In this document: in pieces, positions 43,968 through 60,947 of the stretch | Numbering within the stretch: the stretch's first letter is position 1 | Layout: each line of letters starts with the position of its first letter | Assembly (NCBI GenBank): GCA_913031595.1 | Contig: CAJWCP010000001.1 | Location: 4,782 to 68,781, forward strand | DNA: 64,000 nucleotides | Direction of reading: 5' to 3' | From: an uncultured Flavobacteriales bacterium | GTDB lineage: Bacteria > Bacteroidota > Bacteroidia > Flavobacteriales > BACL11 | The notes under the pieces: model-generated | Databases searched by the model: none | Seen by the model: only the letters and a program-made list of their open reading frames with translations | Told to the model about the DNA's origin: nothing | Program-made: the position numbers and the translations under genes

Positions 43968-45707
43968 TTATTCGATAATGATCTTTTTTTCTACTGTTCC
44001 ATCATCATAGATATGAAAGAAGGGCTCATTATTTCTCTCATTGATTTCTTTTCCTAATATATTAATCGTTCTTATAATTTTTTTCTTTGTATTATTAATA
44101 TTATTATAATTAGTATTTACTTCTAAACACACAGCTTCTACTTCAATGTTGTAATAAAAGTAATAATAGCCAGCTTGAGAAGCGCTAGATCCAGTAATGT
44201 TTATTATTTCTCCAATATTATAAGGATAAATAGCTCCTGTGCTATTACGGTAAAGGCCAGAATTATTTGTAGACAACCCTAATTGCATGTCTGTTCCTAT
44301 AGGTACTGTGAAATTTAGTATGACATTTTGTTTTCCTGAAAACACTGTGTGTGTTGTGTCATCTATTACATTGCCATTATTATCTCGAAGTTCAAATGTT
44401 ATAGAGTTTGTATTTTCAGCATATATATCAGCTGATTTAATAATACATGTGTCATTACTATTAAATATTAGATGTTGATCATTATAAAAATATCCACCAG
44501 AGCCTATATTAATATCAGTTGCACCTCCATTAAACAGATTAACATTGGCTAGTGAATTATAATTACTTGCAGATTGGTTTAAACATCCAATAACTGCAGC
44601 TATGCAACTTCCATTATCATGACAAGCTAAACTATCATAATTAATTGCTAAAGGATCAGTACATCCACTAATATAACAGCAGCTTCCATCATCAATAGTT
44701 GCAAGACTAGAGAAATTATAAGCACTAGGATCAGTGCATCCGCAATCGTCACTTAATTTATATTTATATATAGCAATAGGAGAAGTAGGGAAAAAGGAAT
44801 TATTATTTTGCCCTAAAAGAAAATAAGCATCACAACCAATTACAAAACTTCCAGGAGCCCAGATGGCATCTCCAGGGTGAGAAGGTAGTTGATTCCAGGA
44901 ATCATTTGTTGGGTTATATTCCCAGAACTCTCCTTCATCTAGGGGTCCATGATCATCGCCATCTCCACTTAATACATATCCTTTATTATTGTATGAAAAT
45001 TGAGTGCCAGCTACTCTCGCTTCTCCAGGGAAATTAGACATTTGTGTCCAGGAATCATTGTTTGGATTATAGCGATAGAAGTCATTATAAATATATGAAT
45101 TAGCAGAGGGGTTACTTCCAGGTCCAAATACACTTCCATGACCAAATCCTACATATGCATAGTCACCAATTCCAAAATAGAATGGATGGTGTCTATTATT
45201 GCCAATTAGATCAGTTTTTTGTGTCCATGTGTTATTTGTTACATTATACTCCCACCAGTCACCTAAGTTTCCATTGTCATTACTTCCACATCCCATATAG
45301 ATATTATCGTTTACTACAATCATTGCAGGATGATTTCTTCCATCTCCAGGGAAATTTGCTTTTTGTGTCCAGCTGTCATTTATCATGTCATATTCCCACC
45401 AATCTGTTGGATATATTCCATTTGAAGTTGATCCAAATCCTAAATACGCTTTATCTCCTATCGATACTCCATAGGCATAGCCTCTTCCCGTAGAAGGGAA
45501 ATCTTGTAATTGTGTCCAAGTATCGTTTATTTTATCGTATTTATATGCATCAGTAAGATAACTTCCAGATATTACAAATCCATGCTCATTATTTGAAAAT
45601 GTGATTGGATGATGTCTTCCATCAGCAGGAAAATTTGATAATTGTTGCCAGTTCTGGCTAATACCTATTAAAGGTAAAAAAAACAATATAAGCAGTATTT
45701 TTTTCAT
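43968..45707 (-). CDS. Secreted six-bladed Kelch-type beta-propeller protein with Cys-knot repeats, unknown beta-rich domain and short C-terminal tag
   Basis: 579 aa with a signal peptide. Six repeats of the form W[TN]Q...FP..R....... (e.g. DTWTQLQDFPSTGRGYAYG, DSWTQKANFPGDGRNHPAM). It also has three GCxDxxAxNY...DDGSC motifs and the C-terminus INILGKE...PFFHIYDDGTVEKKIIIE. Confidence 0.75.
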   Translation of the reverse strand: MKKILLILFFLPLIGISQNWQQLSNFPADGRHHPITFSNNEHGFVISGSYLTDAYKYDKINDTWTQLQDFPSTGRGYAYGVSIGDKAYLGFGSTSNGIYPTDWWEYDMINDSWTQKANFPGDGRNHPAMIVVNDNIYMGCGSNDNGNLGDWWEYNVTNNTWTQKTDLIGNNRHHPFYFGIGDYAYVGFGHGSVFGPGSNPSANSYIYNDFYRYNPNNDSWTQMSNFPGEARVAGTQFSYNNKGYVLSGDGDDHGPLDEGEFWEYNPTNDSWNQLPSHPGDAIWAPGSFVIGCDAYFLLGQNNNSFFPTSPIAIYKYKLSDDCGCTDPSAYNFSSLATIDDGSCCYISGCTDPLAINYDSLACHDNGSCIAAVIGCLNQSASNYNSLANVNLFNGGATDINIGSGGYFYNDQHLIFNSNDTCIIKSADIYAENTNSITFELRDNNGNVIDDTTHTVFSGKQNVILNFTVPIGTDMQLGLSTNNSGLYRNSTGAIYPYNIGEIINITGSSASQAGYYYFYYNIEVEAVCLEVNTNYNNINNTKKKIIRTINILGKEINERNNEPFFHIYDDGTVEKKIIIE

Positions 45708-45797: not shown

Positions 45798-47156
45798 TTA
45801 TTTTCCGATACAAAATTTACTAAATATGTTACCTAATAGATCATCTGTTGTAATACTGCCTGTTATGCTTCCTAGATGAAATAGAGCTTGACGAATATTT
45901 ATCGTTAATAAATCAGTGCTTATATTTTCATCTAGTCCATTAATAATAGCTTTGATTTCATGTAAAGTTAATTGTAGTTCTTCGTAATGTCTTAGGTTTG
46001 TTATAATTATATCATTATTTGAAATATCTTGAATACTAACAATATTTAGTATTTTTTCTTTTAATTCTTTAATTCCAGTTTTGTTTTTAGCAGATATATA
46101 AGTAGGGTTTTCAATATCACTTTTGAAATTAGAGTTTAAATCAATTTTATTAATTACAACTAGAATGTTGTTTTCTGATATGTTTTTAATCTTTTTAAGT
46201 TGATTTATTTGTTCTTTTGTTTTATTGTTAGCATCAATTAGAAATAATATAATTTCTGCTTTTTTTGCTTTTTCAATAGATTTTTGAATCCCCATTATTT
46301 CAATCGTATCATTAGTATCTCTTATGCCTGCAGTATCAATAAATCGGAATCTAATACCATCAATAATTAGTTCATCTTCAATAGCATCTCGTGTTGTACC
46401 TGCAATTTCAGAGACAATAGCTTTTTCTTCATTAACTAAGGTGTTTAATAGTGTAGATTTCCCTGCATTTGGCGCTCCTATAATTGCAACAGGGATTCCA
46501 TTTTTTATGGCATTACCTAATTTAAAAGAAGTAATAAGTTTTTTTAGTTCTGTTTGAATTATTATTAATAATTGATTGAGTTCTTTTCTATTTGCAAACT
46601 CTACATCCTCTTCAGAGAAGTCAAGTTCTAATTCAATTAATGAAGCAAAATCTATTAGTCTTTTACGTAGCTCTTCTAATGTATTTGAGAATCCTCCTCT
46701 TAGTTGTTTAAGAGCTGTTTTATGCTCTATTTTACTTTTGGATGAAATAAGATCAGCAATTGATTCAGCTTGTGAAAGATCCAATTTTCCATTTTTAAAA
46801 GCACGCATACTAAATTCTCCAGGATTTGCCATACGGCATCCTTTATTAATTAATATTTCTAAAATCTTTTTTTGTATAAATAAAGAGCCATGACATGAGA
46901 TTTCTATTGTTTCTTCTCCTGTAAATGATTTGTTTTTATGAAATACACTTATAATTACCTCATCAATGATTTCATTGTTATCTAAAATTGTTCCAAAGTG
47001 TATTGTGTGTGATTTTACATTTTCAAGATTCTTGCTAAAAATAGTATTTGTAATTTTTATTGAATCTTTTCCTGAAATTCGTATGAGCGCAATAGCACTT
47101 GTGCCTCCTCCTGTTGCTAATGCACAAATAGTATCTTCTTGTATAAAATTATTCAT
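45798..47156 (-). CDS. mnmE: tRNA modification GTPase MnmE
   Basis: The start is placed at MNNFIQEDTICALATGGG, supported by a -7 box 4 nt upstream. It has G-domain GAPNAGKSTLLN and DTAG, and the C-terminal FCIGK motif. Confidence 0.9.
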   Translation of the reverse strand: MNNFIQEDTICALATGGGTSAIALIRISGKDSIKITNTIFSKNLENVKSHTIHFGTILDNNEIIDEVIISVFHKNKSFTGEETIEISCHGSLFIQKKILEILINKGCRMANPGEFSMRAFKNGKLDLSQAESIADLISSKSKIEHKTALKQLRGGFSNTLEELRKRLIDFASLIELELDFSEEDVEFANRKELNQLLIIIQTELKKLITSFKLGNAIKNGIPVAIIGAPNAGKSTLLNTLVNEEKAIVSEIAGTTRDAIEDELIIDGIRFRFIDTAGIRDTNDTIEIMGIQKSIEKAKKAEIILFLIDANNKTKEQINQLKKIKNISENNILVVINKIDLNSNFKSDIENPTYISAKNKTGIKELKEKILNIVSIQDISNNDIIITNLRHYEELQLTLHEIKAIINGLDENISTDLLTINIRQALFHLGSITGSITTDDLLGNIFSKFCIGK

Positions 47157-47160
47157 TGTG

Positions 47161-47168
47161 CAAAAATA
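47161..47168 (-). promoter_or_regulatory. -7 promoter element TATTTTTG, 4 nt upstream of the mnmE ATG
   Basis: The minus strand reads TATTTTTG-CACA-ATG. It lies inside the longer ORF-track version of mnmE. Confidence 0.45.
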
Positions 47169-47228
47169 TTCAAAATCCTTTGTTTGTAAGCATATTGTCG
47201 TAATTTTACACATCAAAATTTTAAATAT

Positions 47229-48107
47229 ATGAGTGTATTAGTTGATAAAAATTCAAAAGTTATTATTCAAGGATTTACCGGAAGTGAAGGTACATTTCAT
47301 GCTCAACAGATGATAGAATATGGGACTAATGTAGTAGGGGGTGTGACTCCAGGAAAAGGAGGTCAAATACATCTAGATAAACCTGTATTTAATACTGTTA
47401 ATGATGCAATAGAAAAAGTTGGGGCAAACACATCTTTGATTTTTGTTCCTCCGGCATTTGCAAGTGATGCAATAATGGAAGCAGCTGAAGCTGGAATTAA
47501 GGTAATTATTTGTATTACTGAAGGTATACCTACTAAAGATATGATTATCGTAAAAGAGTATTTGTCATCTAGAGATTGTACTTTAGTTGGTCCTAATTGT
47601 CCTGGTGTTATTACACCTGGAGAAGCAAAGTGTGGTATTATGCCTGGTTTTGTTTTTAAGAAAGGTAGAATAGGTTTAGTTTCAAAATCTGGCACATTAA
47701 CTTATGAAGCAGCTGATCAAGTAGTGAAAGCAGGTATGGGTATTTCTACTGCTATAGGTATAGGAGGAGATCCTATTATTGGAACAACTACAAAAGAAGC
47801 TGTTCAGCTTTTTATGTCTGATCCAGATACAGATGGTATAATTATGATTGGTGAGATTGGAGGTCAGTTAGAAGCTGATGCAGCTAAATGGATTAAAGAA
47901 AATGGAACTAAGCCTGTAGTTGGTTTTATTGCGGGACAAACTGCTCCTGCTGGTAGAACGATGGGTCATGCTGGCGCTATTGTAGGAGGGAAGGATGACA
48001 CAGCTGCTGCTAAGATGGCTATTTTACGTGAGTGTGGTATTAAGGTTGCTGATTCTCCAGCTGATATAGGTATTCTTATGGCAGAGTTAATGCAAGTTAA
48101 CGTATAA
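47229..48107 (+). CDS. sucD: Succinate--CoA ligase subunit alpha
   Basis: 292 aa, with [19 protein letters not shown] and MGHAGAI (catalytic His) motifs. Confidence 0.95.
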
Positions 48108-48130
48108 ATTAACCATTTTTTTTCTTCTGA

Positions 48131-50179
48131 TTAATATAATAAAATCTCTTCTATTTTTTTACTAACTTTTTCTGCATTTGGCAGCATAGTTTTTTCTAAT
48201 ACAGAGTTTAAAGGAATTGCAGGTAAGTTTTCAGATCCTATTACAAAAACTGGACTATCTAATTGCTCAAAACAGTTTTCTTGAATATCTCCAGCTAGTG
48301 CTTGAGCGAAGGAACTGTGATAAGATTCTTCTGTTATAATTAAACATTTTCCATGTTTATTAACTGTCTTGTATATTAACTCTTTGTCTAATGGGTATAG
48401 AGTTCTTAGATCAATGATCTCTACTTTTCCTTGATGATCCTTTGCAGCATTAATAGCCCAATGTACTCCCATACCGTATGTAATAATACATATAGTATTT
48501 TCATAACCTTCACTTTGTATTATGCTTTTTCCTTTTCCAAAAGGAATAATATAATCTTCTGAAGGTTCTATTGTTTTTGCATTTTCAGTTCCTTTTATTT
48601 TACTCCAATATAATCCTTTATGCTCTAGCATAACAACAGGGTTTGGATCATAATATGCAGATTTCATTAATCCTTTTAGATCAGCTCCATTTGACGGATA
48701 TGCTATTTTAATACCTTTAATTTGTGCTAAAACTGATTCTATAGATGATGAATGATAAGGACCTCCACTACCATATGCTCCAATAGGAACTCTTATGATA
48801 CAACTTACAGGCCACTTTCCATTTGATAAATAATTTGAACGACTTACTTCTGTAAAAAGTTGATTAAGTCCTGGCCATATATAATCTGCAAATTGTACTT
48901 CTACAATTGGTTTTAGACCTACTGCTGACATACCTACTGTACTCCCAATAATAAATGCTTCTTGTATAGGAGTATTAAAAACTCTATTATCTCCAAAAGT
49001 TTGTGCTAATGTTGCGGTTTCACGAAATACACCTCCTAAACGTTTTCCAACATCTTGACCATATAATAAACATTCAGGGTGTTTTTTCATTAATTCTTTG
49101 ATTGCAAACAGTGCTGAATCTACCATGACAGTAGCTTCTTTATTTTTTGGAGATCTCTCTCCTTTTTCTTCTGTGATATCAGTAGGAGAGAAGTCATGTA
49201 AGAATAAATCTTCAGGAGATGGCTCTTCTGCTTTACAAGCTTTTGTGTAATGTGAAATGACGTTCTCTTTAGCTTCTTTTTCTATATCTAATAATTCTTT
49301 TTTTGTAAAATTATTTTTTAATAATTCTTTTTTTAGTTTCGGGAAAGGATCTTTTCTTTTAGCTTCTTTTAAGTCATCTCGATACCACTCCATCCTTACT
49401 CCAGAGGTATGATGGTTTAATAAGGGAACTTTCGCATGTATTAAAATTGGAATTCTTTTTGCTCTAATTTCTTTGAATGCTTTACTAATAGTATTATATG
49501 ATGTAGTAAAATCTGTTCCATCAATAGAGTATGTTTTTAATCCGAATCCTTTTGCGTAATGATTTGCATCTACAGCTCTTGTTTCAGATGCATGTGCTGA
49601 TATGTCCCATTCATTATCTTGTACTAAATATAGGATAGGTAGTTGTTTTAAAGCAGCCATTTGAAAAGCTTCGGCAACCTCTCCTTCAGTAATTGCTGCA
49701 TCTCCAAAAGAACAAACCACTACAGGTTCTTCTCCTTTTTTAGGTGTTGTTATTTTTTCACTTTCTTTATATTTGATTCCCATTGCAACTCCTGTTGTAG
49801 GTATTGCTTGCATTCCTGTTGCAGATGATTGATGTGGTATTTTTGGGAATCCTTTTCTTTTTAAAGAAGGGTGTGAGTAGTAAGTTCTACCTCCAGAAAA
49901 TGGATCATCTTTTTTACACATGAGTTGCAGCATTAATTCATAGGGAGTCATTCCAATTCCAAGTAAAAGAGAGTCGTCTCTATAATAAGGAGCAACCCAG
50001 TCATTTTCAGTTAATTGAAGGCCTAAAGCTAATTGGATTGCTTCGTGTCCTTTTGATGTTGCATGTACATATTTTGAAGTTACGGCTGCATTTTCTTCAT
50101 ATATATCACTCATTTCCCGTGCAGTACACATTAATGAATAAGCTTTTTTTAAGATCTTTTTTGACAGTTTACTACTCAT
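48131..50179 (-). CDS. Fused alpha/beta E1 component of a 2-oxoacid dehydrogenase (ThDP-dependent)
   Basis: 682 aa. The N-terminal half is E1-alpha-like (ThDP motif GDAAITEGE...N) and the C-terminal half is transketolase-like E1-beta. There is a TAATG overlap with the upstream enoyl-CoA hydratase gene. Confidence 0.8.
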   Translation of the reverse strand: MSSKLSKKILKKAYSLMCTAREMSDIYEENAAVTSKYVHATSKGHEAIQLALGLQLTENDWVAPYYRDDSLLLGIGMTPYELMLQLMCKKDDPFSGGRTYYSHPSLKRKGFPKIPHQSSATGMQAIPTTGVAMGIKYKESEKITTPKKGEEPVVVCSFGDAAITEGEVAEAFQMAALKQLPILYLVQDNEWDISAHASETRAVDANHYAKGFGLKTYSIDGTDFTTSYNTISKAFKEIRAKRIPILIHAKVPLLNHHTSGVRMEWYRDDLKEAKRKDPFPKLKKELLKNNFTKKELLDIEKEAKENVISHYTKACKAEEPSPEDLFLHDFSPTDITEEKGERSPKNKEATVMVDSALFAIKELMKKHPECLLYGQDVGKRLGGVFRETATLAQTFGDNRVFNTPIQEAFIIGSTVGMSAVGLKPIVEVQFADYIWPGLNQLFTEVSRSNYLSNGKWPVSCIIRVPIGAYGSGGPYHSSSIESVLAQIKGIKIAYPSNGADLKGLMKSAYYDPNPVVMLEHKGLYWSKIKGTENAKTIEPSEDYIIPFGKGKSIIQSEGYENTICIITYGMGVHWAINAAKDHQGKVEIIDLRTLYPLDKELIYKTVNKHGKCLIITEESYHSSFAQALAGDIQENCFEQLDSPVFVIGSENLPAIPLNSVLEKTMLPNAEKVSKKIEEILLY

Positions 50180-50934
50180 TATTTGTTTTTAAACTTTGCA
50201 ATAGCATTTTTTGTAAATTCCGAGAGTACTAATTGCCCACTGTTTTTAGCTCTTTCCATTAAGAGTTGATCCCAGTTCTCAGTTCCTTTCCAAAGGATTT
50301 TCTTTAATTCTTGCATTGCTTCAGGATTTGAATTAGAAAGAGTGATAGCTAGTTTATTAACTTCTTGATCCATTTCTTCACTAGATTCAAATATTTCTAT
50401 ATATAGTCCTTTTTCTTTAGCCCAGTTTGCGTCAAACCATTTTGTAGCATTTATGGTCATAGCAGAAAAGGAAGAAACTCCTACTTTTCTCCTTACTGCT
50501 GGACCAACTACAAACGGTCCAATACCGATTGCTAATTCAGATAACTTGACTGAAGAAAATTTCGTAGCAAAGCAATAATCAGTAGCAGAAAGCATACCTA
50601 CACCACCTCCAACTGCTTTACCTTGTACACGTCCAATAATAAATTTAGGACATTTACGAGCTGCATTAATTACATTAGCAAAACCTAAAAAGAAATTTTT
50701 ACCATTTTCTGCGTCTTTAATAGAGGTTAATTCTTCGAAGGAGGCTCCTGCACAAAATGCTCTTTCTCCACCACTTTTTAATATAATTACTTTAATGTTT
50801 TCATCTTCTCCTGCTTTTGTAATTGTATTAGCTAATTGTGCTAAGATATTTGCTGGTAGAGAGTTAGATTGTGGATGAAAGAACTCAATTGTTCCAATAC
50901 CATTTTGTATATCTAATTTTACATATTCTTCCAT
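50179..50934 (-). CDS. Enoyl-CoA hydratase/isomerase (crotonase) family protein; PaaF candidate
   Basis: 251 aa with crotonase oxyanion region FCAGASFEE and GKAVGGGVGM. Confidence 0.75.
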   Translation of the reverse strand: MEEYVKLDIQNGIGTIEFFHPQSNSLPANILAQLANTITKAGEDENIKVIILKSGGERAFCAGASFEELTSIKDAENGKNFFLGFANVINAARKCPKFIIGRVQGKAVGGGVGMLSATDYCFATKFSSVKLSELAIGIGPFVVGPAVRRKVGVSSFSAMTINATKWFDANWAKEKGLYIEIFESSEEMDQEVNKLAITLSNSNPEAMQELKKILWKGTENWDQLLMERAKNSGQLVLSEFTKNAIAKFKNK

Positions 50935-50935
50935 A

Positions 50936-52564
50936 TTATTCTAGTATTATTTTTTTCTCTACTCTTCCATCTGTATAGATATAGAATAGAGGTGTATTTT
51001 TTTTAGGAGAGGTTTCTTTTCCAAGTACATTGGTAATTCTATACTCTTTACTATTAGAGTTGATTTCGTTTATATTTGTTGAGTTAATCATGGTTAAATC
51101 TAAGGTAATTATACTATCACAACCTTCTGAATTTGTTGTTGTAAAAGTATAAATCCCACTTTGTGTATATTCTATTCCATTCCAAGTATAATTATTGTAT
51201 CCAGTATCTGTAACAAGTGATGAACTTGAGTGTTTAATCCATAAGTCTAATATTATTGTGCTGTCACAACCACATTGATTAGGAAATGTATTTATATAAG
51301 TTCCAGATGTTGTGTAATTAGTTCCATTCCAAGAGTAAGAATCACATGTGTCTAATGTTATTGCTATAGTTGGTGTTGGATAACAGCAACTTCCATCATC
51401 AACATTAGCTGTAGAATCATAATTACATGCTAATAAGTCCATGCAACCTACGTTTTGAGATGCAAAGAACCAGTCAAATTTTTGTGCTCTATATAAGTTT
51501 CCTCCATCATCATATTCTAATTGAAAAACAATCTGGCCATTTGTATCTACTTCTGTTACAATGGATCCTATGTTTAACCATTGTAGATTGCCAAAGTCAA
51601 TTAGTGTATTACCATTTGGTAATCTCTGTACTCCGCTAATTGATGGAGTATATAAGGAATCAGGATGAACAAATTCCCATACTTTTTCTGCAGTCATTAA
51701 ATTAGTGTCAAGTTCATATTCTACAGCTCTTGAAAGTTTTACTCCAATATATGTATCACTATGATTACCATTATCATATAATAAATATCTATTATCACCT
51801 AAGCTTCTAATAGAGTGTTGATGTGTGAAAGGGTAGTCATTTATAAAGGTAAATTCATTTTGAGAACCTCCCCATCTCCAGATAACTTCTCCTGTTGTTC
51901 TATGTATTTTTGTGATTTCATCTAAACCTCTTGAAGAAATAATAAAGTGTCCATCAAAATCAATGTCTATTGCATTTGCATGAATAAAATTTAATTGCGA
52001 TCCTGTCCAAGGAGACAGATAAGTATTGTCTGTTACATGAAAATGATCCCAACTTTTCCATTCAAAGAGCAGGTTATGATTAGAATCTAATTCTTGAATA
52101 ATTAACCCTTCAACTATAGCATTGGGGTCTCCACCAGCAACTACTGTATCCATAGCATAAGGTTGTTCATCATATGCGATAAGCACATAATTTCCATTTG
52201 GTAATGCTAAAAAATCATGATTATCTGCAATATATCCATTTTGGCAGTAAACAGAATCAATTTCATTTTGTAAAGAATCCATAATAAACCATCCTTTACT
52301 AGATCTGTCAAAATAGGATAATTTATTATTATAATTAACCTTAAAGTCCCATCCTTTCATTCCCCAATTTTGAGAAAATATTTCTGTTCCTGTTGAGTCT
52401 ATTATTTTAACAGGTCTTGGAGCAGTTCCTCCTCTTTGAAAGAAAAGATTTGCATCCCAAGCTTGATTTGTATTAACCGTTATTGTATAGTTAGGTTGTT
52501 GAGGTTGTGTAAAAGAAAGTGTTGGGATAATTATAAGAAATAGTAATATTTTTTTTATCATCAT
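50936..52564 (-). CDS. Secreted arylsulfotransferase (ASST)-like beta-propeller protein with Cys modules and short C-terminal tag
   Basis: 542 aa with a signal peptide. ASST-family-like motifs are NHDFLALPNGN, FIHANAIDIDFDGHFIISSRGLDEITKI...GEVIWRWGG and HQHSIRSLGDNRYLLYDNGN. It then has GCMDLLACNYDSTANVDDGSCCY, two WNG...SG.Y...GCDS modules and the C-terminus TNVLGKE...PLFYIYTDGRVEKKIILE. Confidence 0.6.
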   Translation of the reverse strand: MMIKKILLFLIIIPTLSFTQPQQPNYTITVNTNQAWDANLFFQRGGTAPRPVKIIDSTGTEIFSQNWGMKGWDFKVNYNNKLSYFDRSSKGWFIMDSLQNEIDSVYCQNGYIADNHDFLALPNGNYVLIAYDEQPYAMDTVVAGGDPNAIVEGLIIQELDSNHNLLFEWKSWDHFHVTDNTYLSPWTGSQLNFIHANAIDIDFDGHFIISSRGLDEITKIHRTTGEVIWRWGGSQNEFTFINDYPFTHQHSIRSLGDNRYLLYDNGNHSDTYIGVKLSRAVEYELDTNLMTAEKVWEFVHPDSLYTPSISGVQRLPNGNTLIDFGNLQWLNIGSIVTEVDTNGQIVFQLEYDDGGNLYRAQKFDWFFASQNVGCMDLLACNYDSTANVDDGSCCYPTPTIAITLDTCDSYSWNGTNYTTSGTYINTFPNQCGCDSTIILDLWIKHSSSSLVTDTGYNNYTWNGIEYTQSGIYTFTTTNSEGCDSIITLDLTMINSTNINEINSNSKEYRITNVLGKETSPKKNTPLFYIYTDGRVEKKIILE

Positions 52565-52572
52565 TTTAAAAT

Positions 52573-54621
52573 TTAAGATTGGTCTTTTTTTCTTACCATA
52601 GTTAATATAGTTGCTAACATCACTGTTTCATTCTCGTCGTCATATACATCTACTAAGAATTTTACAATACCTTTTGCTATATCTTCTTCATCTTTTTTTT
52701 CTTGAGTGATTTTTTCTTTTGCTGTAAACCGTACACCAATTGTCATTCCAGGATAAACAGGTTTTGTAAATCTACACTCATCAATACCATAATTTAAAAG
52801 TACAGGTCCTTTTTCAGGATCTACAAAAAGACCTGCAGCTTTACTCATTATAAAATAACCATGCGCTACTCTTTCTGTAAAGATTGTTCCATCTAACGAA
52901 TTTTCATCCATATGGGCATAGAATTTGTCTCCGCTTAGATCTGCAAAGTTTTCAATATCATCTAGTGTAACAGTATGTTTTTTTGTGATAACTGTATCAC
53001 CAATCTGTATTTCTTCAAAGTGTTTGCGGAAAACATGAGGTCCTTCTGTATTTTGCTCTCCACCTACTTGGTATTGTTTGGTGAGCGCTGTAATTGTTGT
53101 TGGGTGTCCTTGTATGGCTGTTCTTTGTAGATAATGTTTAATGCCTCTTATTCCTCCCATCTCTTCTCCACCACCTGCTCTTCCAGGACCTCCATGTGTT
53201 AGTAGAGGCATAGGAGAGCCATGACCAGTACTTTCTTTAGCACATGCCTCATTAAGAACTAATATTCTACCATGCATAGAAGCAGCTCCTATTACAAATT
53301 CTTCTGCAATTTTCATATCATTTGTTATAATAGAGCATACTAATGACCCTTTTCCCATTTTCGCAAGTTTGATAGCCTCATTAATATCTTTATAAGGTAA
53401 TATAGTAGATATAGGTCCAAAAGCTTCTATGTTATGACAATCTGTATTTTTAAAAGGATAATTGTTTAGAAATAGAATTGGTGAGATAAAGGCTCCTTTA
53501 TCTTTATCAGCTCCTAATACTTCAAAATTATCTAGATCTCCAAACACTATATCTTGAGATTTTGCTAACTGGTGAACTTTTTCTGTTACCTCTTTCTTTT
53601 GTTCTTTTCCTGCAAGGCTTCCCATTCTTACTCCTTCAATAGTAGGATCTCCAATAACAGTTTTTGAGAGTCTTTTTCCAAGTGCTATTTGCACATCTTC
53701 TACAAGTTTCTCAGGTACAATAATTCTTCTAACAGCAGTACATTTTTGACCCGCTTTTACTGTCATCTCTTTTTGCACTTCTTTTATAAATAATTCAAAT
53801 TCTGGTGTTCCTGGAACAGCATCTTCCCCAAGAACAGAGCAGTTTAGTGAATCTGCCTCCATATTAAATGGAACAGCCTCTTCTATTAATCTAGGGTGTG
53901 CTTTTAACATTTTTCCAGTATCTGCACTTCCTGTAAAAGTGACTACATCTTCAGATGTTACACTATCTAATATACCTCTTGCACTTCCGCATATAAGTTG
54001 TAAACTGCCTTCCGGTATAATTTTAGATTCTATTATTTCACGAACCATGTATTCTGTAAGATATGATGTTAGTGTTGCTGGTTTTACAATTGCTGGCATT
54101 CCTGCCATTAAGTTTACTGCTATTTTTTCTAGCATACCCCATATTGGGAAATTGAATGCATTAATATGAATAGCCACTCCTTCTTTTGGAACCATTATAT
54201 GGTGTCCAATAAATGTTCCGTTTTTAGAAAGAGGAACAGCATTTTCTTCTACGTGGTATGGTAGGTCTGGGAATTGTCTTCTAAGAGATGCATTTGTAAA
54301 TAAATTGCCTATTCCTCCTTCAATATCTATCCAGCTATCAATCTTTGTTGCTCCTGTTTGAAAACTTATAGGATAAAATTTATTTTTTATTGAGTGTAAA
54401 TGAAGAGCAAGTTTCTTTAACATTAATCCTCTTTCTTGGAACGTCATTTTTCTAAGTGCGGGACCACCTACTTTCCTTGCATAATTCATCATTTCTGAGA
54501 AATCTAAACCTTTTGATGTGGCTGTTCCTATTTGCTCTCCTGTTATAGCATTGAAAAGGGGAGTCCCTTCTCCATCTCCTTTAATCCAATTTCCTAAAGC
54601 GTAGTTTTCGTAATTTCTCAT
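52573..54621 (-). CDS. paaZ: Bifunctional PaaZ (oxepin-CoA hydrolase / 3-oxo-5,6-dehydrosuberyl-CoA semialdehyde dehydrogenase)
   Basis: 682 aa with an N-terminal aldehyde dehydrogenase domain (catalytic Cys region GQKCTAV) and a C-terminal MaoC-like hydratase domain. The length matches E. coli PaaZ. Confidence 0.85.
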   Translation of the reverse strand: MRNYENYALGNWIKGDGEGTPLFNAITGEQIGTATSKGLDFSEMMNYARKVGGPALRKMTFQERGLMLKKLALHLHSIKNKFYPISFQTGATKIDSWIDIEGGIGNLFTNASLRRQFPDLPYHVEENAVPLSKNGTFIGHHIMVPKEGVAIHINAFNFPIWGMLEKIAVNLMAGMPAIVKPATLTSYLTEYMVREIIESKIIPEGSLQLICGSARGILDSVTSEDVVTFTGSADTGKMLKAHPRLIEEAVPFNMEADSLNCSVLGEDAVPGTPEFELFIKEVQKEMTVKAGQKCTAVRRIIVPEKLVEDVQIALGKRLSKTVIGDPTIEGVRMGSLAGKEQKKEVTEKVHQLAKSQDIVFGDLDNFEVLGADKDKGAFISPILFLNNYPFKNTDCHNIEAFGPISTILPYKDINEAIKLAKMGKGSLVCSIITNDMKIAEEFVIGAASMHGRILVLNEACAKESTGHGSPMPLLTHGGPGRAGGGEEMGGIRGIKHYLQRTAIQGHPTTITALTKQYQVGGEQNTEGPHVFRKHFEEIQIGDTVITKKHTVTLDDIENFADLSGDKFYAHMDENSLDGTIFTERVAHGYFIMSKAAGLFVDPEKGPVLLNYGIDECRFTKPVYPGMTIGVRFTAKEKITQEKKDEEDIAKGIVKFLVDVYDDENETVMLATILTMVRKKDQS

Positions 54622-54644
54622 TTGTATAACTCTTCTTTGTTAAT

Positions 54645-55205
54645 TTATTGACAAGTTAAATTGTTTTGGTTTGATTTAATATACACAGGGTTTTTCCATC
54701 CAAAAACATTATACATAATTGAATCATTAAAATAAACATCCGTAACAAAAGATATTTGATTATCTGATATAATTGTGAATTTATTTAACACTTTATTCCA
54801 TAGAACTGGTTCTTGCAAAGATATGTATTCAATCCATAGGTCATTTTCCGTGTTTTTTACAATTTCATAATGCATTCCATCTATATCAGTAGTCCCTCCT
54901 TCATTAAACCATAAGCAGAACCAGTCGTTAGAATTGTTAGACATATTTGTTCTTCCTAACATGAAATTATTACCTGAGTAGAATCCTATTTGTTCCCAAT
55001 TTAAATATCCATAACCATCATCATTACATTGTGCTACTTCAGAATCCCAATTATCTTGATATAACCAAACCGAACCATCTTGTTGTTCTAAGAAGGTTGT
55101 TGCTCCATTATTATTTGTCGGTGTATTTTCTTCTTTTTCACAAGAGATAAACAATAAAGGTAAATAAACTATAGCTAGTAGCTTCGTTATTGTGTTTTTT
55201 TCCAT
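54645..55205 (-). CDS. Hypothetical lipoprotein embedded in the paa operon
   Basis: 186 aa with lipobox LFISC. Its start overlaps the paaY 3' end by 19 nt. No family recognised. Confidence 0.5.
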   Translation of the reverse strand: MEKNTITKLLAIVYLPLLFISCEKEENTPTNNNGATTFLEQQDGSVWLYQDNWDSEVAQCNDDGYGYLNWEQIGFYSGNNFMLGRTNMSNNSNDWFCLWFNEGGTTDIDGMHYEIVKNTENDLWIEYISLQEPVLWNKVLNKFTIISDNQISFVTDVYFNDSIMYNVFGWKNPVYIKSNQNNLTCQ

Positions 55206-55780
55206 GTGTCAAAAGTTATTTTTTGTTTTGCCTTTCTATTTTTTTCAATTTCAGATAAAGGAGAACATTCTCTCATTAATTCTTTGCATTCTTTTGGAAG
55301 CTGTTGATACAATTCTGTTCCTTTAGTTTTCCATTTAATCATCTCATCTGACACATCTCCTTTTATTTGTGCAGGATTTCCTACAACAATTTTCCTATTA
55401 GGTATTTGCATTTCACCCTTTACAAAACATAGAGCCCCAATAATACATTCACTACCAACATTTACATCATCCATAATTACAGCATTCATGCCTATCATAC
55501 TATTTTTTCCAATATTAGCTCCATGGATAATTGCACCATGGCCAATATGAGCATTCTCTTCTAGTATAACATCTTTACCTGGAAAGATATGAATAATACA
55601 ATTATCTTGAACATTACACCCGTCTTTAATTATAATTTGTCCCCAATCTCCTCTAAGTGATGCTCCAGGTCCAATATATACATTCTTACCAATAATTACA
55701 TTACCAATGATAGTAGCTTCTTTATGTACAAAAGAACTAGAATCTATTACAGGCTTATATCCATTAAATTCGTAAATCAT
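55187..55780 (-). CDS. paaY: PaaY-like hexapeptide-repeat protein (gamma-carbonic-anhydrase family)
   Basis: 197 aa with a left-handed beta-helix and His ligands (HIGHGAIIHG). Located in the paa operon. Confidence 0.75.
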   Translation of the reverse strand: MIYEFNGYKPVIDSSSFVHKEATIIGNVIIGKNVYIGPGASLRGDWGQIIIKDGCNVQDNCIIHIFPGKDVILEENAHIGHGAIIHGANIGKNSMIGMNAVIMDDVNVGSECIIGALCFVKGEMQIPNRKIVVGNPAQIKGDVSDEMIKWKTKGTELYQQLPKECKELMRECSPLSEIEKNRKAKQKITFDTWKKTQ

Positions 55781-56979
55781 ATTTTTTCAATTATTGTAGC
55801 ATATCCTTGTCCTACACCAATACACATGGTAACTAAGGCATATTTTTTATTTTGTTTTTTTAGTTCTATAGCAGCAGTTTGTAAGATTCTTGTTCCGCTT
55901 ACTCCAAGAGGATGCCCTAATGCTATAGAACCTCCGTTTGGATTAATTCTTGGATCATCATCTTTTAATCCCCATTCTCTAATACAGGCTAAGGCTTGTG
56001 CAGAGAAAGCTTCATTTAATTCAATGATATCCATCTCCTCCATATTTAAACCTGCCTTTTCAAGAGCTTTATTAGAAGCCATAACAGGTCCAATACCCAT
56101 TATTCTCGGTTCAACACCTATAACAGCTGAACTTACAATTCTTGCAATAGGAGAGAGGTTGTTTTCTTTGACTCCTTTGTCAGAAGCTAAAAGCATTGCA
56201 GCTGCTCCATCATTTAATCCTGATGAGTTACCTGCAGTTACTGACCCTCCTTCTTTTTTAAATGCTGTTCTTAATTTACCTAATACCTCTAGTGATGTGT
56301 TAGGCTTTATAAATTCATCTTTATCAAATATGATAGGTTCTTTTTTTCTTTGAGATATTTCTACTGGAATGATTTCTTCAGCTAATCTTCCTGAATTTTG
56401 AGCGTTTGTTGCTTTCATCTGAGAGTTGTAAGCAAATAAATCTTGATCTTCACGAGAGATATTATATTTCTCTACTAGATTTTCTGCTGTATTTCCCATA
56501 GGATCTACTCCATATAATTCTTTAAGTCTAGGATTTATAAAACGCCAGCCGAAAGAGGAGTCATACATTTTTGCATTTCTTCCAAATGGTCGTAAAACTT
56601 TTGATATAACCCAAGGTCCTCTAGTCATACTTTCTACACCTCCAGCTATGAATAGATTTCCGTCTTCTGCACAGATAGCTCTGTGAGCATGTATAACTGA
56701 AGACATTCCTGATGAACATAGACGATTTATTGTTTCTCCAGGCACAGTAAATGGTAATCCTGCTAGTAATAGAGACATACGTGCTATATTACGATTATCT
56801 TCTCCAGCTTGATTTGCACAACCTAATATAACATCATCTATTTTGTTTGGATCAATTCCTGTTCTTTTTATTAATTCTTTGATTGGAATAGCACCAAGAT
56901 CGTCTGTGCGAACATCTTTTAGAGTTCCTCCAAAATTCCCTATAGGGGTTCTTATCGCATCTATTATATATGTACTCAT
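55777..56979 (-). CDS. paaJ: 3-oxoadipyl-CoA / 3-oxo-5,6-dehydrosuberyl-CoA thiolase
   Basis: 400 aa thiolase with active-site Cys region NRLCSSGMSS and C-terminal motifs NPNGGSIALGHPLG and CIGVGQG. Confidence 0.85.
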   Translation of the reverse strand: MSTYIIDAIRTPIGNFGGTLKDVRTDDLGAIPIKELIKRTGIDPNKIDDVILGCANQAGEDNRNIARMSLLLAGLPFTVPGETINRLCSSGMSSVIHAHRAICAEDGNLFIAGGVESMTRGPWVISKVLRPFGRNAKMYDSSFGWRFINPRLKELYGVDPMGNTAENLVEKYNISREDQDLFAYNSQMKATNAQNSGRLAEEIIPVEISQRKKEPIIFDKDEFIKPNTSLEVLGKLRTAFKKEGGSVTAGNSSGLNDGAAAMLLASDKGVKENNLSPIARIVSSAVIGVEPRIMGIGPVMASNKALEKAGLNMEEMDIIELNEAFSAQALACIREWGLKDDDPRINPNGGSIALGHPLGVSGTRILQTAAIELKKQNKKYALVTMCIGVGQGYATIIEKI

Positions 56980-56983
56980 TTTC

Positions 56984-57091
56984 TTACCACATTTCGGTTT
57001 TTATCTTCTTATTATTATTGCATTTTTTACTAGTAGTGCAAGCACCTAATAAGAATACTAAACATACTAATAGTATCATTGTTTTTTTCAT
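56984..57091 (-). CDS. Putative 35-aa mini-lipoprotein (below the ORF-track cutoff)
   Basis: MKKTMILLVCLVFLLGACTTSKKCNNNKKIKTEMW with lipobox LLGAC. It fills the paaI-paaJ gap, leaving 5-nt and 4-nt spacers. Confidence 0.3.
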   Translation of the reverse strand: MKKTMILLVCLVFLLGACTTSKKCNNNKKIKTEMW

Positions 57092-57096
57092 TTTTT

Positions 57097-57507
57097 TTAA
57101 AACCATTTTTTTTTAGTTCGATATACTTCACCTTTAAAGTGAGCAATCTCTATTTTATTTTGATTCGTTATCTTAATTTGATAGGTCGCATTTTTATCAT
57201 CTTTTCTTATTTCTTGTGTTTCAGCAGTTAAAGTGTCTCCTATCATTACTTTTTTTGTGTGAGAAATAGAAGTGTTAATAGATAAAGATTGTCTTCCGTC
57301 TGAATTTGCAGCAAATGCTAATGCACTATCTGCTAATGAGTATGCAATTCCTCCATGTGCAATTCTAAATCCATTTGTCATATCTTCTCTTATAGTCATT
57401 GTTAGTTTACAATATCCCTTAGAAACATTCACAACTTTAATACCTAACCAATTACTAAATGCATCACCATTTATCATTTTATTTACAACTTTCTCAGCTA
57501 GTTCCAT
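57097..57507 (-). CDS. paaI: Hydroxyphenylacetyl-CoA thioesterase PaaI
   Basis: 136 aa hotdog thioesterase with HGGIAYSLADSA motif. Confidence 0.8.
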   Translation of the reverse strand: MELAEKVVNKMINGDAFSNWLGIKVVNVSKGYCKLTMTIREDMTNGFRIAHGGIAYSLADSALAFAANSDGRQSLSINTSISHTKKVMIGDTLTAETQEIRKDDKNATYQIKITNQNKIEIAHFKGEVYRTKKKWF

Positions 57508-58661
57508 TAATAGAATGTTTTGTTTTCTTTTATCATTCTTCTTAAGATAGGGGAAGGTCTATATCTTTCTTCTCCATATTCTGCTTGTAACTCTTCTAAT
57601 TGCGTTAATACATTTTTAATTCCTATTTCATCAGCCCAAACCAATAACCCTTTTGGATAGTTTACTCCTTTAGTCATAGCAAGGTCAATGTCTTCTTTTG
57701 TTGCAATCTTTAAGAAAAATGCATCAGCAGCTTCGTTAATTAGCATGCATAATATTCTCCATAATATTATTTTTCCTAAATCTCTATCTTCATTTGCTAA
57801 TGGACGTTCTTCTGTTGTGTAATCATAATATCCTTTTCCAGATTTTCTTCCAAGATATCCTGCTTCCATCATTCTTTTTTGAGTAAATGAAGGTTTATAT
57901 CTGGAGTCAAAATAGAAAGTTGTAAACACTGTTTCGGTCACCATATAATTCACATCATTTCCTATATAATCCATTAGTTCGAAAGGTCCCATACGAAACC
58001 CTCCAATTTCACGCATGGCCCAGTCAATAGTCGCAAAATCAGCAATTCCCTCTTCATAGATTCTTAGAGCTTCTCCATAGAATGGTCTTGCTACACGATT
58101 TACAATAAAGCCTGGAGTATCTTTAGCAATGACTGTGATTTTATTCCATGAGTCAATTATTGATCTAGCAGTATTTAATGTTTCTGTAGTTGTTTGTACA
58201 GCAGGAATGATTTCTACTAAAGGCATTAATGGTGCTGGATTAAAGAAATGAATTCCAATAACTCTTCCTGATTTTTTGCAAGCAGCTGCAATAGACGCGA
58301 TTGATAGAGAGGAAGTGTTAGATGCAATAATACAATCCTTGTCAATAATTCTTTCGATTTTAGAAAATAAATCTTGTTTTATATTTAGATCTTCAATAAT
58401 TGCTTCAATAACTAATACGCTTTCTTGTATATCCTCTAGATCTGTTGTAAAATTAATCCTTGAATTAATATTTTCTTTCTCTTGTTGAGAGATTCTTTCT
58501 TTTTCTACTAGTCTATTTAAGATTTTTTCAATCTTATGCTTAGAATTTTTAATAGCTTCATTAGAGGAATCGTAAAGACATACTTCATGTCCATATGTGG
58601 CAGCAATTTGTGCGATTCCTGTTCCCATTGTCCCTGAACCAACAATACTTATTTTTTTCAT
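57507..58661 (-). CDS. paaH: 3-hydroxyadipyl-CoA (3-hydroxyacyl-CoA) dehydrogenase
   Basis: 384 aa with NAD-binding IVGSGTMGTGIA and a 3HCDH C-terminal domain. Confidence 0.8.
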   Translation of the reverse strand: MKKISIVGSGTMGTGIAQIAATYGHEVCLYDSSNEAIKNSKHKIEKILNRLVEKERISQQEKENINSRINFTTDLEDIQESVLVIEAIIEDLNIKQDLFSKIERIIDKDCIIASNTSSLSIASIAAACKKSGRVIGIHFFNPAPLMPLVEIIPAVQTTTETLNTARSIIDSWNKITVIAKDTPGFIVNRVARPFYGEALRIYEEGIADFATIDWAMREIGGFRMGPFELMDYIGNDVNYMVTETVFTTFYFDSRYKPSFTQKRMMEAGYLGRKSGKGYYDYTTEERPLANEDRDLGKIILWRILCMLINEAADAFFLKIATKEDIDLAMTKGVNYPKGLLVWADEIGIKNVLTQLEELQAEYGEERYRPSPILRRMIKENKTFY

Positions 58662-59431
58662 TATTTTCCTTTAAATTCTGGCTTTCTTTTTTCTAAAAAA
58701 GCTTCTACACCTTCTTGATAATCAACAGTATTTCCTGCTATAGTCTGATAATCTCTTTCCATATTTAACTGTTCTCCTAGATTATTGCTATAAGAGGAAT
58801 TTAATAATCTTTTAGTAAGACCTAAACCTTTGGTTGCCATCTCAGCTAATTTTTTAGCTAGTTTTAAACTCTCTTGTTCAAATGATTCGTTTGAGAACAC
58901 TTTATAAATCATGCCTATTTTTTCAGCCTCCATTGCAGATATTGGTTCACCTGTCATCATGAGTCCTGTTGCTTTTTGCATGCCAATTAATCTTGGTAAG
59001 AAGAACGTTGCTCCACTATCTGGGATTAATCCAATTTTACTAAATGCTTGTATAAATGATGCATTTTCACATGCTATTACAATATCACAGCATAGAGCAA
59101 GGCTTGCACCAGCTCCTGCAGCAACTCCATTTACAGCTGCTATTACTGGTTTTTCTATACTTCTTATTTGTTTAATAATAGGATTGTAATGTTCTTCCAC
59201 AATTTCTGTTAAGGAAGGTCCTTCTTTTTGTGTGGCTTCTATTAAATCTTGACCTGCACAGAATGCTTTTCCAGTTGCTGTTATTAGTATAGATCTAATC
59301 TCTTCATCATTTTTACATTGACTTAAAACCTTTTGAAGATTTAATGCCATTTCTCTTACAAAAGAGTGATATTTTTCCGGACGATTTAAGTGTATTATAC
59401 CTACTCCTTCTGATATTTTAAATTGTATCAT
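58661..59431 (-). CDS. paaG: Crotonase-family 1,2-epoxyphenylacetyl-CoA isomerase
   Basis: 256 aa with FCAGQDL and NGVAAGAGASLAL crotonase motifs. It is positioned after paaABCD. Confidence 0.75.
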   Translation of the reverse strand: MIQFKISEGVGIIHLNRPEKYHSFVREMALNLQKVLSQCKNDEEIRSILITATGKAFCAGQDLIEATQKEGPSLTEIVEEHYNPIIKQIRSIEKPVIAAVNGVAAGAGASLALCCDIVIACENASFIQAFSKIGLIPDSGATFFLPRLIGMQKATGLMMTGEPISAMEAEKIGMIYKVFSNESFEQESLKLAKKLAEMATKGLGLTKRLLNSSYSNNLGEQLNMERDYQTIAGNTVDYQEGVEAFLEKRKPEFKGK

Positions 59432-59473
59432 TTTTTTCAGATTATTAGAGTGCTAAAATACGAAAAATAAATC

Positions 59474-59926
59474 TTAGATACATTTAAAAGCCTCGAAGGG
59501 CTCTAAACAATCTGAGCACTTGTAAAAGGCTTTACAAGCGGTTGCTCCAAACTCACTTATTAGTGTAGTGTTTTTAGAATTACATTGTGGACATATTACT
59601 ATTTTAGAAGGAGGTGCTATTCCGTAATTGTTAAGTTTTTCTTTTGTTTCTTTACTCATCCAATCTGTAGTCCAGGCAGGAGCGTAAACTAGCTTAATTT
59701 TAAAGTTTCTGAATCCATTTTCTTTAAGACATTTTTTGATATCATTAGTAAATGCTGTTACCGCAGGGCATCCAGAGTACGTGGGAGTTATTGATATAGT
59801 ATATAAATTGTCTTTCAGATTCACATCTCTTACTACACCTAATTCAACTATTGATATTACTGGAATTTCTGGATCAGGTATTGTATTAAGTAATTGCCAG
59901 ATATGTTTTATATTACCATTTTGCAT
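59474..59926 (-). CDS. paaD: 1,2-phenylacetyl-CoA epoxidase subunit PaaD
   Basis: The start is placed at MQNGNIKHIWQLLNTIPDPEIPVISI. It has a SUF/MIP18-like domain and a C-terminal Cys cluster (CPQC...CKAFYKCSDC). Confidence 0.8.
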   Translation of the reverse strand: MQNGNIKHIWQLLNTIPDPEIPVISIVELGVVRDVNLKDNLYTISITPTYSGCPAVTAFTNDIKKCLKENGFRNFKIKLVYAPAWTTDWMSKETKEKLNNYGIAPPSKIVICPQCNSKNTTLISEFGATACKAFYKCSDCLEPFEAFKCI

Positions 59927-60659
59927 TTGGGTATGCTCTTTGTAGAAATTGCATTTCAGCAAGTAGAAAGCCAAGACATTCCGTATGGATTCCTTTTTTT
60001 CCGCCACTTGCCATATATCCATCTTCTGGTCTATTTAATTTGGCAGTTTTTAAAGTACTATCTATCATTTCATTCCATTTAGGTCTGAGTTTACTTACAT
60101 CGATTGCAATATTTTTTTTCATTAGTTCAGTGTCAATTGTATCCATTTCAAATAGCTCACCAGTATATTGCCATAACTCTTCTAATGCATCTTGTACCTT
60201 TTTATTGCTTTCATCCGTACCGTCTCCAAGACGGATTAACCAGTTTTTAGAATGCCTTAAATGATATTTCACTTCTTTTATAGATTTAGCAGCTAATGCT
60301 GATATTCTTTCATCACTACTATTAGCAAGCTCAGTATAAAATAAGAAAATAAAAGAGTCATATAGAAAGTTTCTTACTATAGTCTTGCCAAAATTGCCAT
60401 TTGTTTGTTCTACTAGTTGGTAGTTGAAGAACTCTCGTTCATTTCTAGTAAAGGCTAGTTCATCAGCTGATTTCTCTCCATTTATTTGGGCCGCATATTC
60501 ATAAAACCCATTTGCCTGGCCAAATAAGTCTAGAGATATATTAGAAAGAGCAATATCTTCTTCTAATGTAGGTCCGTTAGAACACCATTCAGCCATTCTT
60601 TGACCTAATATTAGTGCACTATCAGCTATTCTTATGGTATAGGTAAATAAATTCGACAT
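59913..60659 (-). CDS. paaC: 1,2-phenylacetyl-CoA epoxidase subunit PaaC
   Basis: 248 aa ferritin-like helical protein lying between paaB and paaD. Confidence 0.8.
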   Translation of the reverse strand: MSNLFTYTIRIADSALILGQRMAEWCSNGPTLEEDIALSNISLDLFGQANGFYEYAAQINGEKSADELAFTRNEREFFNYQLVEQTNGNFGKTIVRNFLYDSFIFLFYTELANSSDERISALAAKSIKEVKYHLRHSKNWLIRLGDGTDESNKKVQDALEELWQYTGELFEMDTIDTELMKKNIAIDVSKLRPKWNEMIDSTLKTAKLNRPEDGYMASGGKKGIHTECLGFLLAEMQFLQRAYPNAKW

Positions 60660-60943
60660 TAGATATGTTTTGCACCATCTGGCATGTTATAAAAGGTAGG
60701 GTGTCTATATATTTTATCATTTGAGGGGTCAAAGAAAGCCTCACTATCTTCACTTTCAGAAGAGACAATATCTTTTGCTTTAACAACCCATATGCATGAG
60801 CCTTCATTTCTTCTAGTGTATAGATCTCTGGCATTTTCTAAGGCCATTACTTTGTCAGTTGCATGTACATTTCCTACATGTTTATGTGCTAATCCATTTT
60901 TACTTTGAATAAACACTTCCCAGACTATTGTGTTTTCTCCCAT
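60659..60943 (-). CDS. paaB: 1,2-phenylacetyl-CoA epoxidase subunit PaaB
   Basis: 94 aa with WEVF...HVGNVHA...ALENARDLYTRR, typical of PaaB. Confidence 0.9.
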   Translation of the reverse strand: MGENTIVWEVFIQSKNGLAHKHVGNVHATDKVMALENARDLYTRRNEGSCIWVVKAKDIVSSESEDSEAFFDPSNDKIYRHPTFYNMPDGAKHI

Positions 60944-60947
60944 AATA

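Follow-up and report, generated by a model that had tools for sequence, protein, structure and literature searches.

Does a gene for an exported arylsulfotransferase-like (ASST-like) protein that lies among phenylacetate (paa) catabolic genes take part in phenylacetate catabolism? This question is raised by a locus in a 64,000-nucleotide (nt) stretch of DNA, hereafter the window, from an uncultured Flavobacteriales bacterium (GTDB lineage BACL11; assembly GCA_913031595.1, contig CAJWCP010000001.1, positions 4,782 to 68,781). The open reading frame (ORF) list and Pfam place the ASST-like gene at 50936-52564 on the minus strand, where it begins with ATG and codes for 542 amino acids (aa) before the stop. 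Its upstream border is paaZ (52573-54621), which codes for an aldehyde dehydrogenase fused to a MaoC hydratase (TIGR02278 and Pfam Aldedh/MaoC; 878.6 bits against TIGR02278, with a cutoff of 562.8). Its downstream border is a paaF-like crotonase/enoyl-CoA hydratase gene of 251 aa (50179-50934; PF00378 (ECH_1), 6.8e-33). All three genes are on the minus strand, and by the ORF coordinates they are separated by only 8 nt (52565-52572) and 1 nt (50935), exactly as the original prediction for this locus had it. The signal peptide (by inspection), the Cys modules and the short C-terminal tag that it described were also confirmed in the sequence. It had further proposed that the exported enzyme acts outside the cell, upstream of the Paa pathway, and supplies it. 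We consider a different reading reasonably probable: the gene codes for a functional exported sulfotransferase-like protein of the AssT/Cpz4 type, which is independent of 3'-phosphoadenosine-5'-phosphosulfate; it is a passenger in a variable slot, is transcribed by read-through from the paaA promoter, and does not act as a step in the breakdown of phenylacetate.

We compared this locus with its relatives. A scan of species-representative genomes gave 67 ASST-like loci, exact-protein look-ups gave 8 more, and a PaaZ scan of metagenomes gave 80 further loci; about 150 related sequences were compared in all. The counts below are of loci, some of which are near-duplicate metagenomic contigs (e.g., L076/L077 and L004/L081). 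It turned out that the junction between paaZ and the crotonase gene is empty as often as it is filled. Among the 44 loci with both borders, the two genes are directly adjacent (4-55 nt) in 22, and an insert lies between them in the other 22. The paaZ-ASST-crotonase order was found in 10 loci, including L002-L005, L078, L080, L081, L148 (99%) and L149 (74%), and a 99%-identical protein, P0001, has the same context. A rearranged cluster (L018) has the order paaJ-ASST-crotonase, with the ASST-like gene still immediately upstream of the crotonase gene. The comparison with related paa clusters that the original prediction had called for went both ways: the insert recurs, and elsewhere it is absent or replaced.

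Genes other than the ASST-like one fill the junction in about 13 loci. They code for 247-255-aa PKD proteins (L075, L092, L093), a 308-aa LRR-like protein preceded by a 66-aa membrane protein (L076/77), a 499-aa RHS/DUF3836-like protein (L079), a 170-aa protein (L113), 66-69-aa membrane proteins (L068, L089), a GRAM-domain protein (L071), an ABM monooxygenase-like protein (L084) and glyoxalase/VOC proteins (L094, L095, L100, L101, L103). Proteins of the ASST, PKD, LRR-like, 499-aa and 170-aa families begin with a signal peptide and end in the same C-terminal tag, and the slot genes of all five stop 0-1 nt before the crotonase ATG. Variable occupancy extends to the neighbouring junctions: an insert is present at paaI>J in 7 of 20 loci, at paaJ>Y in 14 of 25 and at paaY>Z in 14 of 36. 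Together with Z>crotonase, these junctions are variable and hold mostly signal-peptide/tag genes in 35-56% of related loci. The paaA>B>C>D>G>H>I and crotonase>E1 junctions are almost never interrupted, and the fused E1 gene directly adjoins the crotonase gene in 21 of 22 loci. Cargo families also shift between slots, as the 170-aa family is found in paaY>Z of L068 and L080, and the LRR family in paaY>Z of L085.

In the PaaZ tree, the slot states are interleaved. The window belongs to another subclade than the L002-L005/L078-L081 group, which itself also holds empty slots (L083, L085), the ABM gene (L084) and the 499-aa cargo (L079). The clusters with the closest PaaZ (88-89%: L068-L071) have no ASST-like gene. 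In one locus (L073), the 111-nt spacer (3100-3210) is colinear with the last ~85 nt of the tag-coding sequence up to the stop, ..GAGAAAAAAACAATACTAGAATAA, with an alignment score of 31.5 against 16.4 +/- 2.0 for shuffles. By its sequence, this spacer is the scar left by deletion of an earlier slot occupant; it is equally similar to several tails, so that the loss of an ASST-like gene and that of another tagged gene are indistinguishable.

The ASST-like gene itself is mobile. No paa gene lies within 10 kb in 28 loci (propeller identity 55-87%) of the 39 with a close homologue, and close homologues whose propeller is 82-87% identical occupy at least four other genomic contexts. The commonest of these, with at least 12 loci (L008, L009, L012-L016, L026, L150, L153-L155), has the order amidohydrolase (minus), chorismate synthase (aroC), ASST, Na+/dicarboxylate symporter, OmpA/PD40, rplS (minus) and trmD (minus). 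In L150, a gene for a 654-aa CARDB-like protein replaces the symporter gene downstream, so the aroC site may vary too. Elsewhere the ASST-like gene neighbours porin and GH109 genes, a PEMT-like methyltransferase gene, truA, and genes for a DHH phosphoesterase, a peroxiredoxin, a metallophosphoesterase, a YdjM protein, or CotH and arginase. These neighbours in the non-paa contexts are unrelated housekeeping genes. In bootstrapped neighbour-joining trees of the propeller, a clade with 100% bootstrap mixes paa-slot, aroC-context and other-context genes. Therefore, the gene has changed its address repeatedly within a tight homologue group. The interior of the trees is unresolved (bootstrap 5-35), which leaves a single slot insertion for the window gene and the L002-L005 group unsettled. 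Distant homologues (35-43% identity), from metagenome-assembled genomes (MAGs) of KSB1, Ignavibacteria, Melioribacteraceae and Cytophagia, form tandem arrays of 2-4 ASST-like genes; loci with tandem or distant genes are L037-L039, L042, L048, L051, L055 and L062.

In our reading, the paa 3'-half junctions of this group of low-G+C marine Flavobacteriales would act as variable slots, in which signal-peptide/tag cargo genes and small accessory genes would be gained, swapped and deleted. The position of the ASST-like gene between paaZ and the paaF-like crotonase gene would then reflect its landing site and not its function, and this placement says little about the substrate of the enzyme. The gene shows no compositional anomaly, since its G+C content is 30.9% and that of the window is 30.3%.

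How cargo genes could be exchanged in these slots is suggested by several observations. We put forward only tentatively that the 3' half of the paa array in this clade may consist of cassette-exchange slots, where genes built as signal peptide, cargo and tag are swapped by recombination between their conserved ends, and that the short tag may be an undescribed sorting class beside the canonical C-terminal domains (CTDs) of type IX secretion systems (T9SS). In L079, the signal peptide encoded by the 499-aa non-ASST cargo gene is ASST-like, MKKILVILLCIPMIGFSQ. The tails do not follow the cargo type, as the tail of L113 is nearer to the ASST-like tails of L003-L005 than the tails of L002 and L080 are. 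In several within-clade pairs (among L002-L005, L078 and L080), the ASST-like gene has about half as many synonymous substitutions per site (dS) as the paaZ and crotonase genes that flank it; for the L078-L080 pair its dS is 0.205 versus 0.466 for the flanking paa genes. The halved dS hints at recent recombination of the cassette. Cassette exchange would explain why unrelated cargo genes have the same junctions, with a stop 0-1 nt before the crotonase ATG, why an ASST-like signal peptide stands on the 499-aa cargo, and why the tails are mosaic with respect to cargo and the ASST-like dS is lower. The peptide of L079, the mosaic tails and the lower dS are compatible with exchange in situ, and they are suggestive only.

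We also assessed how the gene could be transcribed. The Bacteroidetes -7 motif TAnnTTTG was scanned on the minus strand at 47000-63200, and four copies were found (61899, 54823, 53530 and 47168). Only the copy proximal to paaA is well placed: the box TAAATTTG (61892-61899, minus strand) lies 25 nt upstream of paaA. From its sequence and position, it is the likely promoter of the whole paa array. On the minus strand there is no TAnnTTTG near the starts of the ASST-like or the crotonase gene, none within 960 nt upstream of the ASST-like start codon, and no terminator-like hairpin was found. These scans agree with the earlier statement that no -7 box or terminator flanks the gene. A sigma-70 promoter scan was set aside, as it gave fewer sites than shuffled sequence and is not applicable to Bacteroidota. 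Because the genes are tightly packed and have no recognisable promoter or terminator between them, co-transcription with the paa genes is the simplest reading, as had been proposed. Thus, we infer that the ASST-like gene is most likely transcribed via read-through from the paaA promoter.

It is also conceivable, if unlikely, that an unrecognised promoter of its own, within the 3' end of paaZ, drives the gene without any link to paa expression, and that the packing results from genome streamlining. Elsewhere, too, the gene is wedged tightly against unrelated upstream genes or overlaps them by 4-8 nt. In the aroC context it is wedged with 4-8-nt overlaps, and the end of aroC is overlapped by about 4 nt. 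As the gene is wedged in every other context, tight spacing appears to be the norm in these genomes whatever the function. No established rules exist for the promoters of these uncultured Flavobacteriales. However, the -7 motif is missing over the 960 nt mentioned above, and the 8-nt spacer is too short for an intergenic promoter.

Could the exported enzyme nevertheless feed the Paa pathway from outside, by processing aryl sulfates or phenolic conjugates, and be co-regulated with paa for this reason? We regard this as improbable. The common strand, the 8-nt and 1-nt spacers and the missing promoter and terminator motifs would fit such a role, as would the 10 related loci with the same arrangement and the paaJ-ASST-crotonase variant, purifying selection on the propeller, and a second common context that adjoins aroC, which also belongs to aromatic metabolism. 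However, half of the related clusters have paaZ abutting the crotonase gene, including clusters nested within the ASST-bearing clade, and others hold unrelated cargo; one locus has a deletion scar, the neighbouring slots are equally promiscuous, and most loci with a close homologue have no paa gene within 10 kb, with at least four other contexts represented. The ASST-like gene thus shows no conserved co-occurrence with paa genes across related clusters. The chemistry does not fit either. Arylsulfotransferases (ASTs) move a sulfuryl group between hydroxyls, which is the chemistry of AssT and Cpz4 (PMC13426309); a phenol would be freed from an aryl sulfate only by sulfating another acceptor, and the transfer gives neither phenylacetate nor a CoA thioester (PMC13426309). 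The protein does not look like a cytoplasmic enzyme of the Paa type acting on CoA thioesters, as it has a signal peptide and a tag, and its fold family acts on sulfate esters.

Several observations weigh against the view of the gene as a passenger. It has been kept in the slot, with its tight junctions intact, across lineages whose synonymous sites are saturated (dS >1 between the window and L005). The rearranged cluster L018 has kept it immediately upstream of the crotonase gene, and its commonest alternative context follows chorismate synthase, the product of another aromatic-metabolism gene. The retention in the slot, the L018 arrangement and the aroC context could mean that selection ties the gene in some way to aromatic metabolism or to how these operons are expressed. 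In addition, the locus counts include near-duplicate metagenomic contigs, and the neighbour-joining trees do not resolve the number of gain and loss events.

What, then, does the passenger code for? The profile searches that the original prediction had proposed place it in the ASST family, above the cutoffs of both models. It matches PF05935 at residues 59-353 (E=1.9e-29; 103.2 bits, cutoff 24.2) and PF14269 (E=5.1e-20; 72.5 bits, cutoff 27), and precomputed Pfam annotation agrees for all 120 listed homologues. Sequence searches of the PDB found Cpz4 (9kf4) with phmmer at 4e-31 and with a 26-sequence profile at 1.5e-59, and AssT (3elq) with the profile at 2.4e-17; the identity of 9kf4/9kf6 as Cpz4 was taken from the Foldseek table, as a literature search on the two entries gave nothing of use. 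At E <= 1e-20 the protein has more than 2,000 database matches, and such MAG proteins have already been named 'aryl-sulfate sulfotransferase' by NCBI.

The active site of AssT consists of His436, which is transiently sulfated, His252, His356, Asn358, Arg374 and Thr501 (PMC13426309). In the profile alignment, AssT H252, H356, N358, R374 and H436 correspond to H116, H195, N197, R212 and H250 of the window protein, and across 26 diverse and 62 close homologues each of these residues is either invariant or conserved to at least 90%. As the counterpart of the sulfated histidine, His250 (codon 51815-51817, minus strand) aligns with H436 of 3elq and with the H436N position of 4p04, and is invariant in both alignments (A1 and A4). 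The codons of the other residues lie on the same strand at 52217-52219 (H116), 51980-51982 (H195), 51974-51976 (N197) and 51929-51931 (R212). The sixth residue, Thr501, has a non-conserved counterpart, which is Ile309 in the window protein; five of the six AssT active-site residues are thus present. The protein has no N-terminal beta-sandwich domain for dimerisation, as found in AssT of E. coli: the propeller begins ~25-60 residues past the signal peptide, and the AssT alignment spans the propeller alone. The domain marks the AssT subgroup and not the Pfam family.

The architecture of the protein can be followed along the gene. The signal-peptide coding part (residues 1-20, MMIKKILLFLIIIPTLSFTQ; 52505-52564) was recognised by inspection from its basic start and the hydrophobic core that follows; ASST-like homologues have a stereotyped N-terminal MKKLLLILLCYPLIGFSQ, and the AlphaFold2 (AF2) model has a helix at residues 3-17. 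Export is well supported by this predicted signal peptide, and the final destination would be the cell surface or beyond if the tag acts in sorting. Residues 23-367 (51464-52498) form the six-bladed beta-propeller catalytic domain according to the PDB profile search, AF2 and Foldseek. Cys-rich linker modules follow, as placed by the Cys positions (residues 368-504; 51053-51463). The C-terminal third has eight Cys (residues 374, 380, 393, 394, 407, 431, 433 and 482), and the Cys-rich region consists of one CxDxxACNYDxxAxxDDGSC motif and two ~45-aa beta-rich repeats. The number of Cys modules differs among orthologues (542-668 aa), and longer ASST-like homologues match PF13573 (SprB repeat). The last part is the short C-terminal tag (residues 505-542 with the stop codon; 50936-51052).

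The AF2 model was built from 62 database homologues and has a mean predicted local distance difference test (pLDDT) score of 77.9, whereas single-sequence AF2 reached a pLDDT of only 32.5. In the Foldseek search with this model, Cpz4 (2e-23) and AssT entries (1e-16) lead, and generic NHL/WD propellers rank below them. The predicted fold is thus a six-bladed propeller like that of solved ASTs. Pairwise ratios of nonsynonymous to synonymous substitution rates (omega) were 0.09-0.13 for the propeller, 0.06-0.14 for the adjacent crotonase gene and 0.25-0.57 for the Cys-rich modules. By these ratios the propeller domain is under strong purifying selection, much like the crotonase gene, and the Cys-rich modules are less constrained.

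Because it matches the family, keeps the active site, is matched by ASTs in the AF2 comparison and has a low propeller omega, the gene is, judged from its sequence, a functional member of the ASST family, and it is a new, uncharacterised member of this known enzyme family; its catalytic activity we infer from the conserved active site and the selection on the domain. It is hardly probable that the propeller is a surface binding protein or an enzyme of other chemistry with the ASST fold: the natural substrates of most ASTs are unknown (PMC13426309), identity is only ~25-30% to Cpz4 and ~16% to AssT, Ile309 replaces Thr501 and the AssT beta-sandwich is absent, but the other five active-site residues, with the sulfo-histidine among them, vary hardly or not at all in the 26 diverse and 62 close homologues, and selection on the domain is strongly purifying. 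By analogy with AssT and Cpz4, His250 of the sulfotransferase would accept the sulfuryl group from an aryl sulfate, and outside the cytoplasm the group would then pass to a hydroxyl on an acceptor that is phenolic or glycosidic.

The best match of the window protein in both sequence and fold is Cpz4 from caprazamycin biosynthesis in Streptomyces sp. MK730-62F2 (9kf4, 9kf6). The template modelling (TM) score on the target is 0.63, and the two proteins have the propeller and the conserved His/Asn/Arg active-site motifs in common, at the low identity given above. The antibiotic biosynthetic cluster that encodes Cpz4 also includes a system dedicated to making the donor, and the hydroxyl that Cpz4 sulfates belongs to a sugar (PMC13426309). 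A signal peptide, Cys-rich modules and a putative sorting tag at the C-terminus set the window protein apart from Cpz4; its gene has catabolic and housekeeping genes as neighbours, and genes for donor synthesis are missing from its vicinity. With AssT of E. coli CFT073 (3elq; PF05935) it shares an extracytoplasmic six-bladed propeller and the five aligned residues; it differs in the missing beta-sandwich and in the Ile at the Thr501 counterpart. AssT is periplasmic and linked to dsbL/dsbI, whereas the window protein bears a tag that would be of the outer-surface or secretion type.

This tag is not specific to the sulfotransferase-like protein. The last ~35 aa (..VLGKETSPKKNTPLFYIYTDGRVEKKIILE) are common to the window ORFs 42767-43813 and 43968-45707 and to nearly all close homologues. 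The consensus ..LG[KRQ]E..N..LFYIYxDGxVEKKIIIE is found on an exported cupredoxin (42767-43813), an exported Kelch protein (43968-45707) and the ASST-like protein, and cargo genes of related loci also bear it. The whole protein would consist of a Sec signal peptide, the six-bladed propeller, a stalk of Cys-rich modules and a lineage-specific C-terminal sorting tag. It resembles T9SS type A cargo (TIGR04183/PF18962) in its layout, which runs from a signal peptide through a functional domain and spacer modules to a conserved tag at the C-terminus. Unlike type A CTDs, however, the tag of the window is only ~35 aa long and has no YPNP-type N-terminal strand. Of 20 tags, 3 matched TIGR04183 (best E 0.0015) and 1 matched PF18962 (E 0.024); these matches are weak, and the tag of the window protein itself matched neither model. 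When the short tag was compared by hhalign with canonical CTDs from related genomes, the probability was 0.2%, with no profile-profile similarity; the idea that it is a truncated T9SS type A CTD is thus unsupported by this comparison. A canonical PF18962 tail (2e-11) is present on the protein encoded at 41528-42763. Thus, two classes of tag occur side by side, and no curated model covers the short one. The window also codes for a PorX-like T9SS regulator (14110-15654; Response_reg and PglZ), in a four-gene block syntenic with L009. Core T9SS genes are not in the 64-kb window. In the literature search, no paper joining arylsulfotransferase, Flavobacteria and T9SS was found, and T9SS-like sorting of the protein is a putative route.

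The remaining genes of the array can be described briefly. The minus-strand array runs from paaA (60948-61874) through paaB, C, D, G, H, I, J and Y and a 186-aa gene to paaZ, and then through the ASST-like and crotonase genes to the last gene, which codes for a fused E1 alpha/beta 2-oxoacid dehydrogenase (48131-50179; Pfam E1_dh, Transket_pyr and Transketolase_C). The gene paaE is divergent, on the plus strand. The 186-aa gene (54645-55205, minus strand) is the occupant of the paaY>paaZ slot; it is lipoprotein-like, with an N-terminus that ends in LLFISC, and a Pfam scan assigned it to no family. In comparison with canonical paa clusters (E. coli paaZ, paaABCDEFGHIJK; Flavobacteriia, PMC13186573), paaA-E, G, H, I, J, Y and Z of the window are clear orthologues. 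The described Paa pathway has no exported protein, whereas the 3' half of the window array carries variable accessory genes; the fused E1 gene is another difference from canonical clusters. The 2026 survey of the paa pathway (PMC13186573) makes no mention of such inserts. No paaK-type AMP-binding ligase was found among the scanned ORFs of the window; entry to the pathway might go from phenylpyruvate to phenylacetyl-CoA, bypassing PaaK. Further downstream, the longest version of the mnmE ORF (45798-47216) begins at TTG, and the TAnnTTTG box at 47168 lies inside this extension. Its true start is therefore probably the downstream ATG (MNNFIQ..).

If an extracellular step of the Paa pathway were real, it would have extended the textbook cytoplasmic pathway, and the comparative data make it unlikely. 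In the compact genomes of these marine Flavobacteriales, gene adjacency, even with likely co-transcription, does not imply shared function. Operon junctions that serve as landing sites for secreted-protein genes call for caution in the guilt-by-association annotation of MAGs. As for the family, a large unstudied group of exported Cpz4-like homologues appears, from sequence comparison, to keep the AssT active site intact. These homologues could take part in the marine turnover of sulfated phenolics or glycans, or could serve as cofactor-free biocatalysts.

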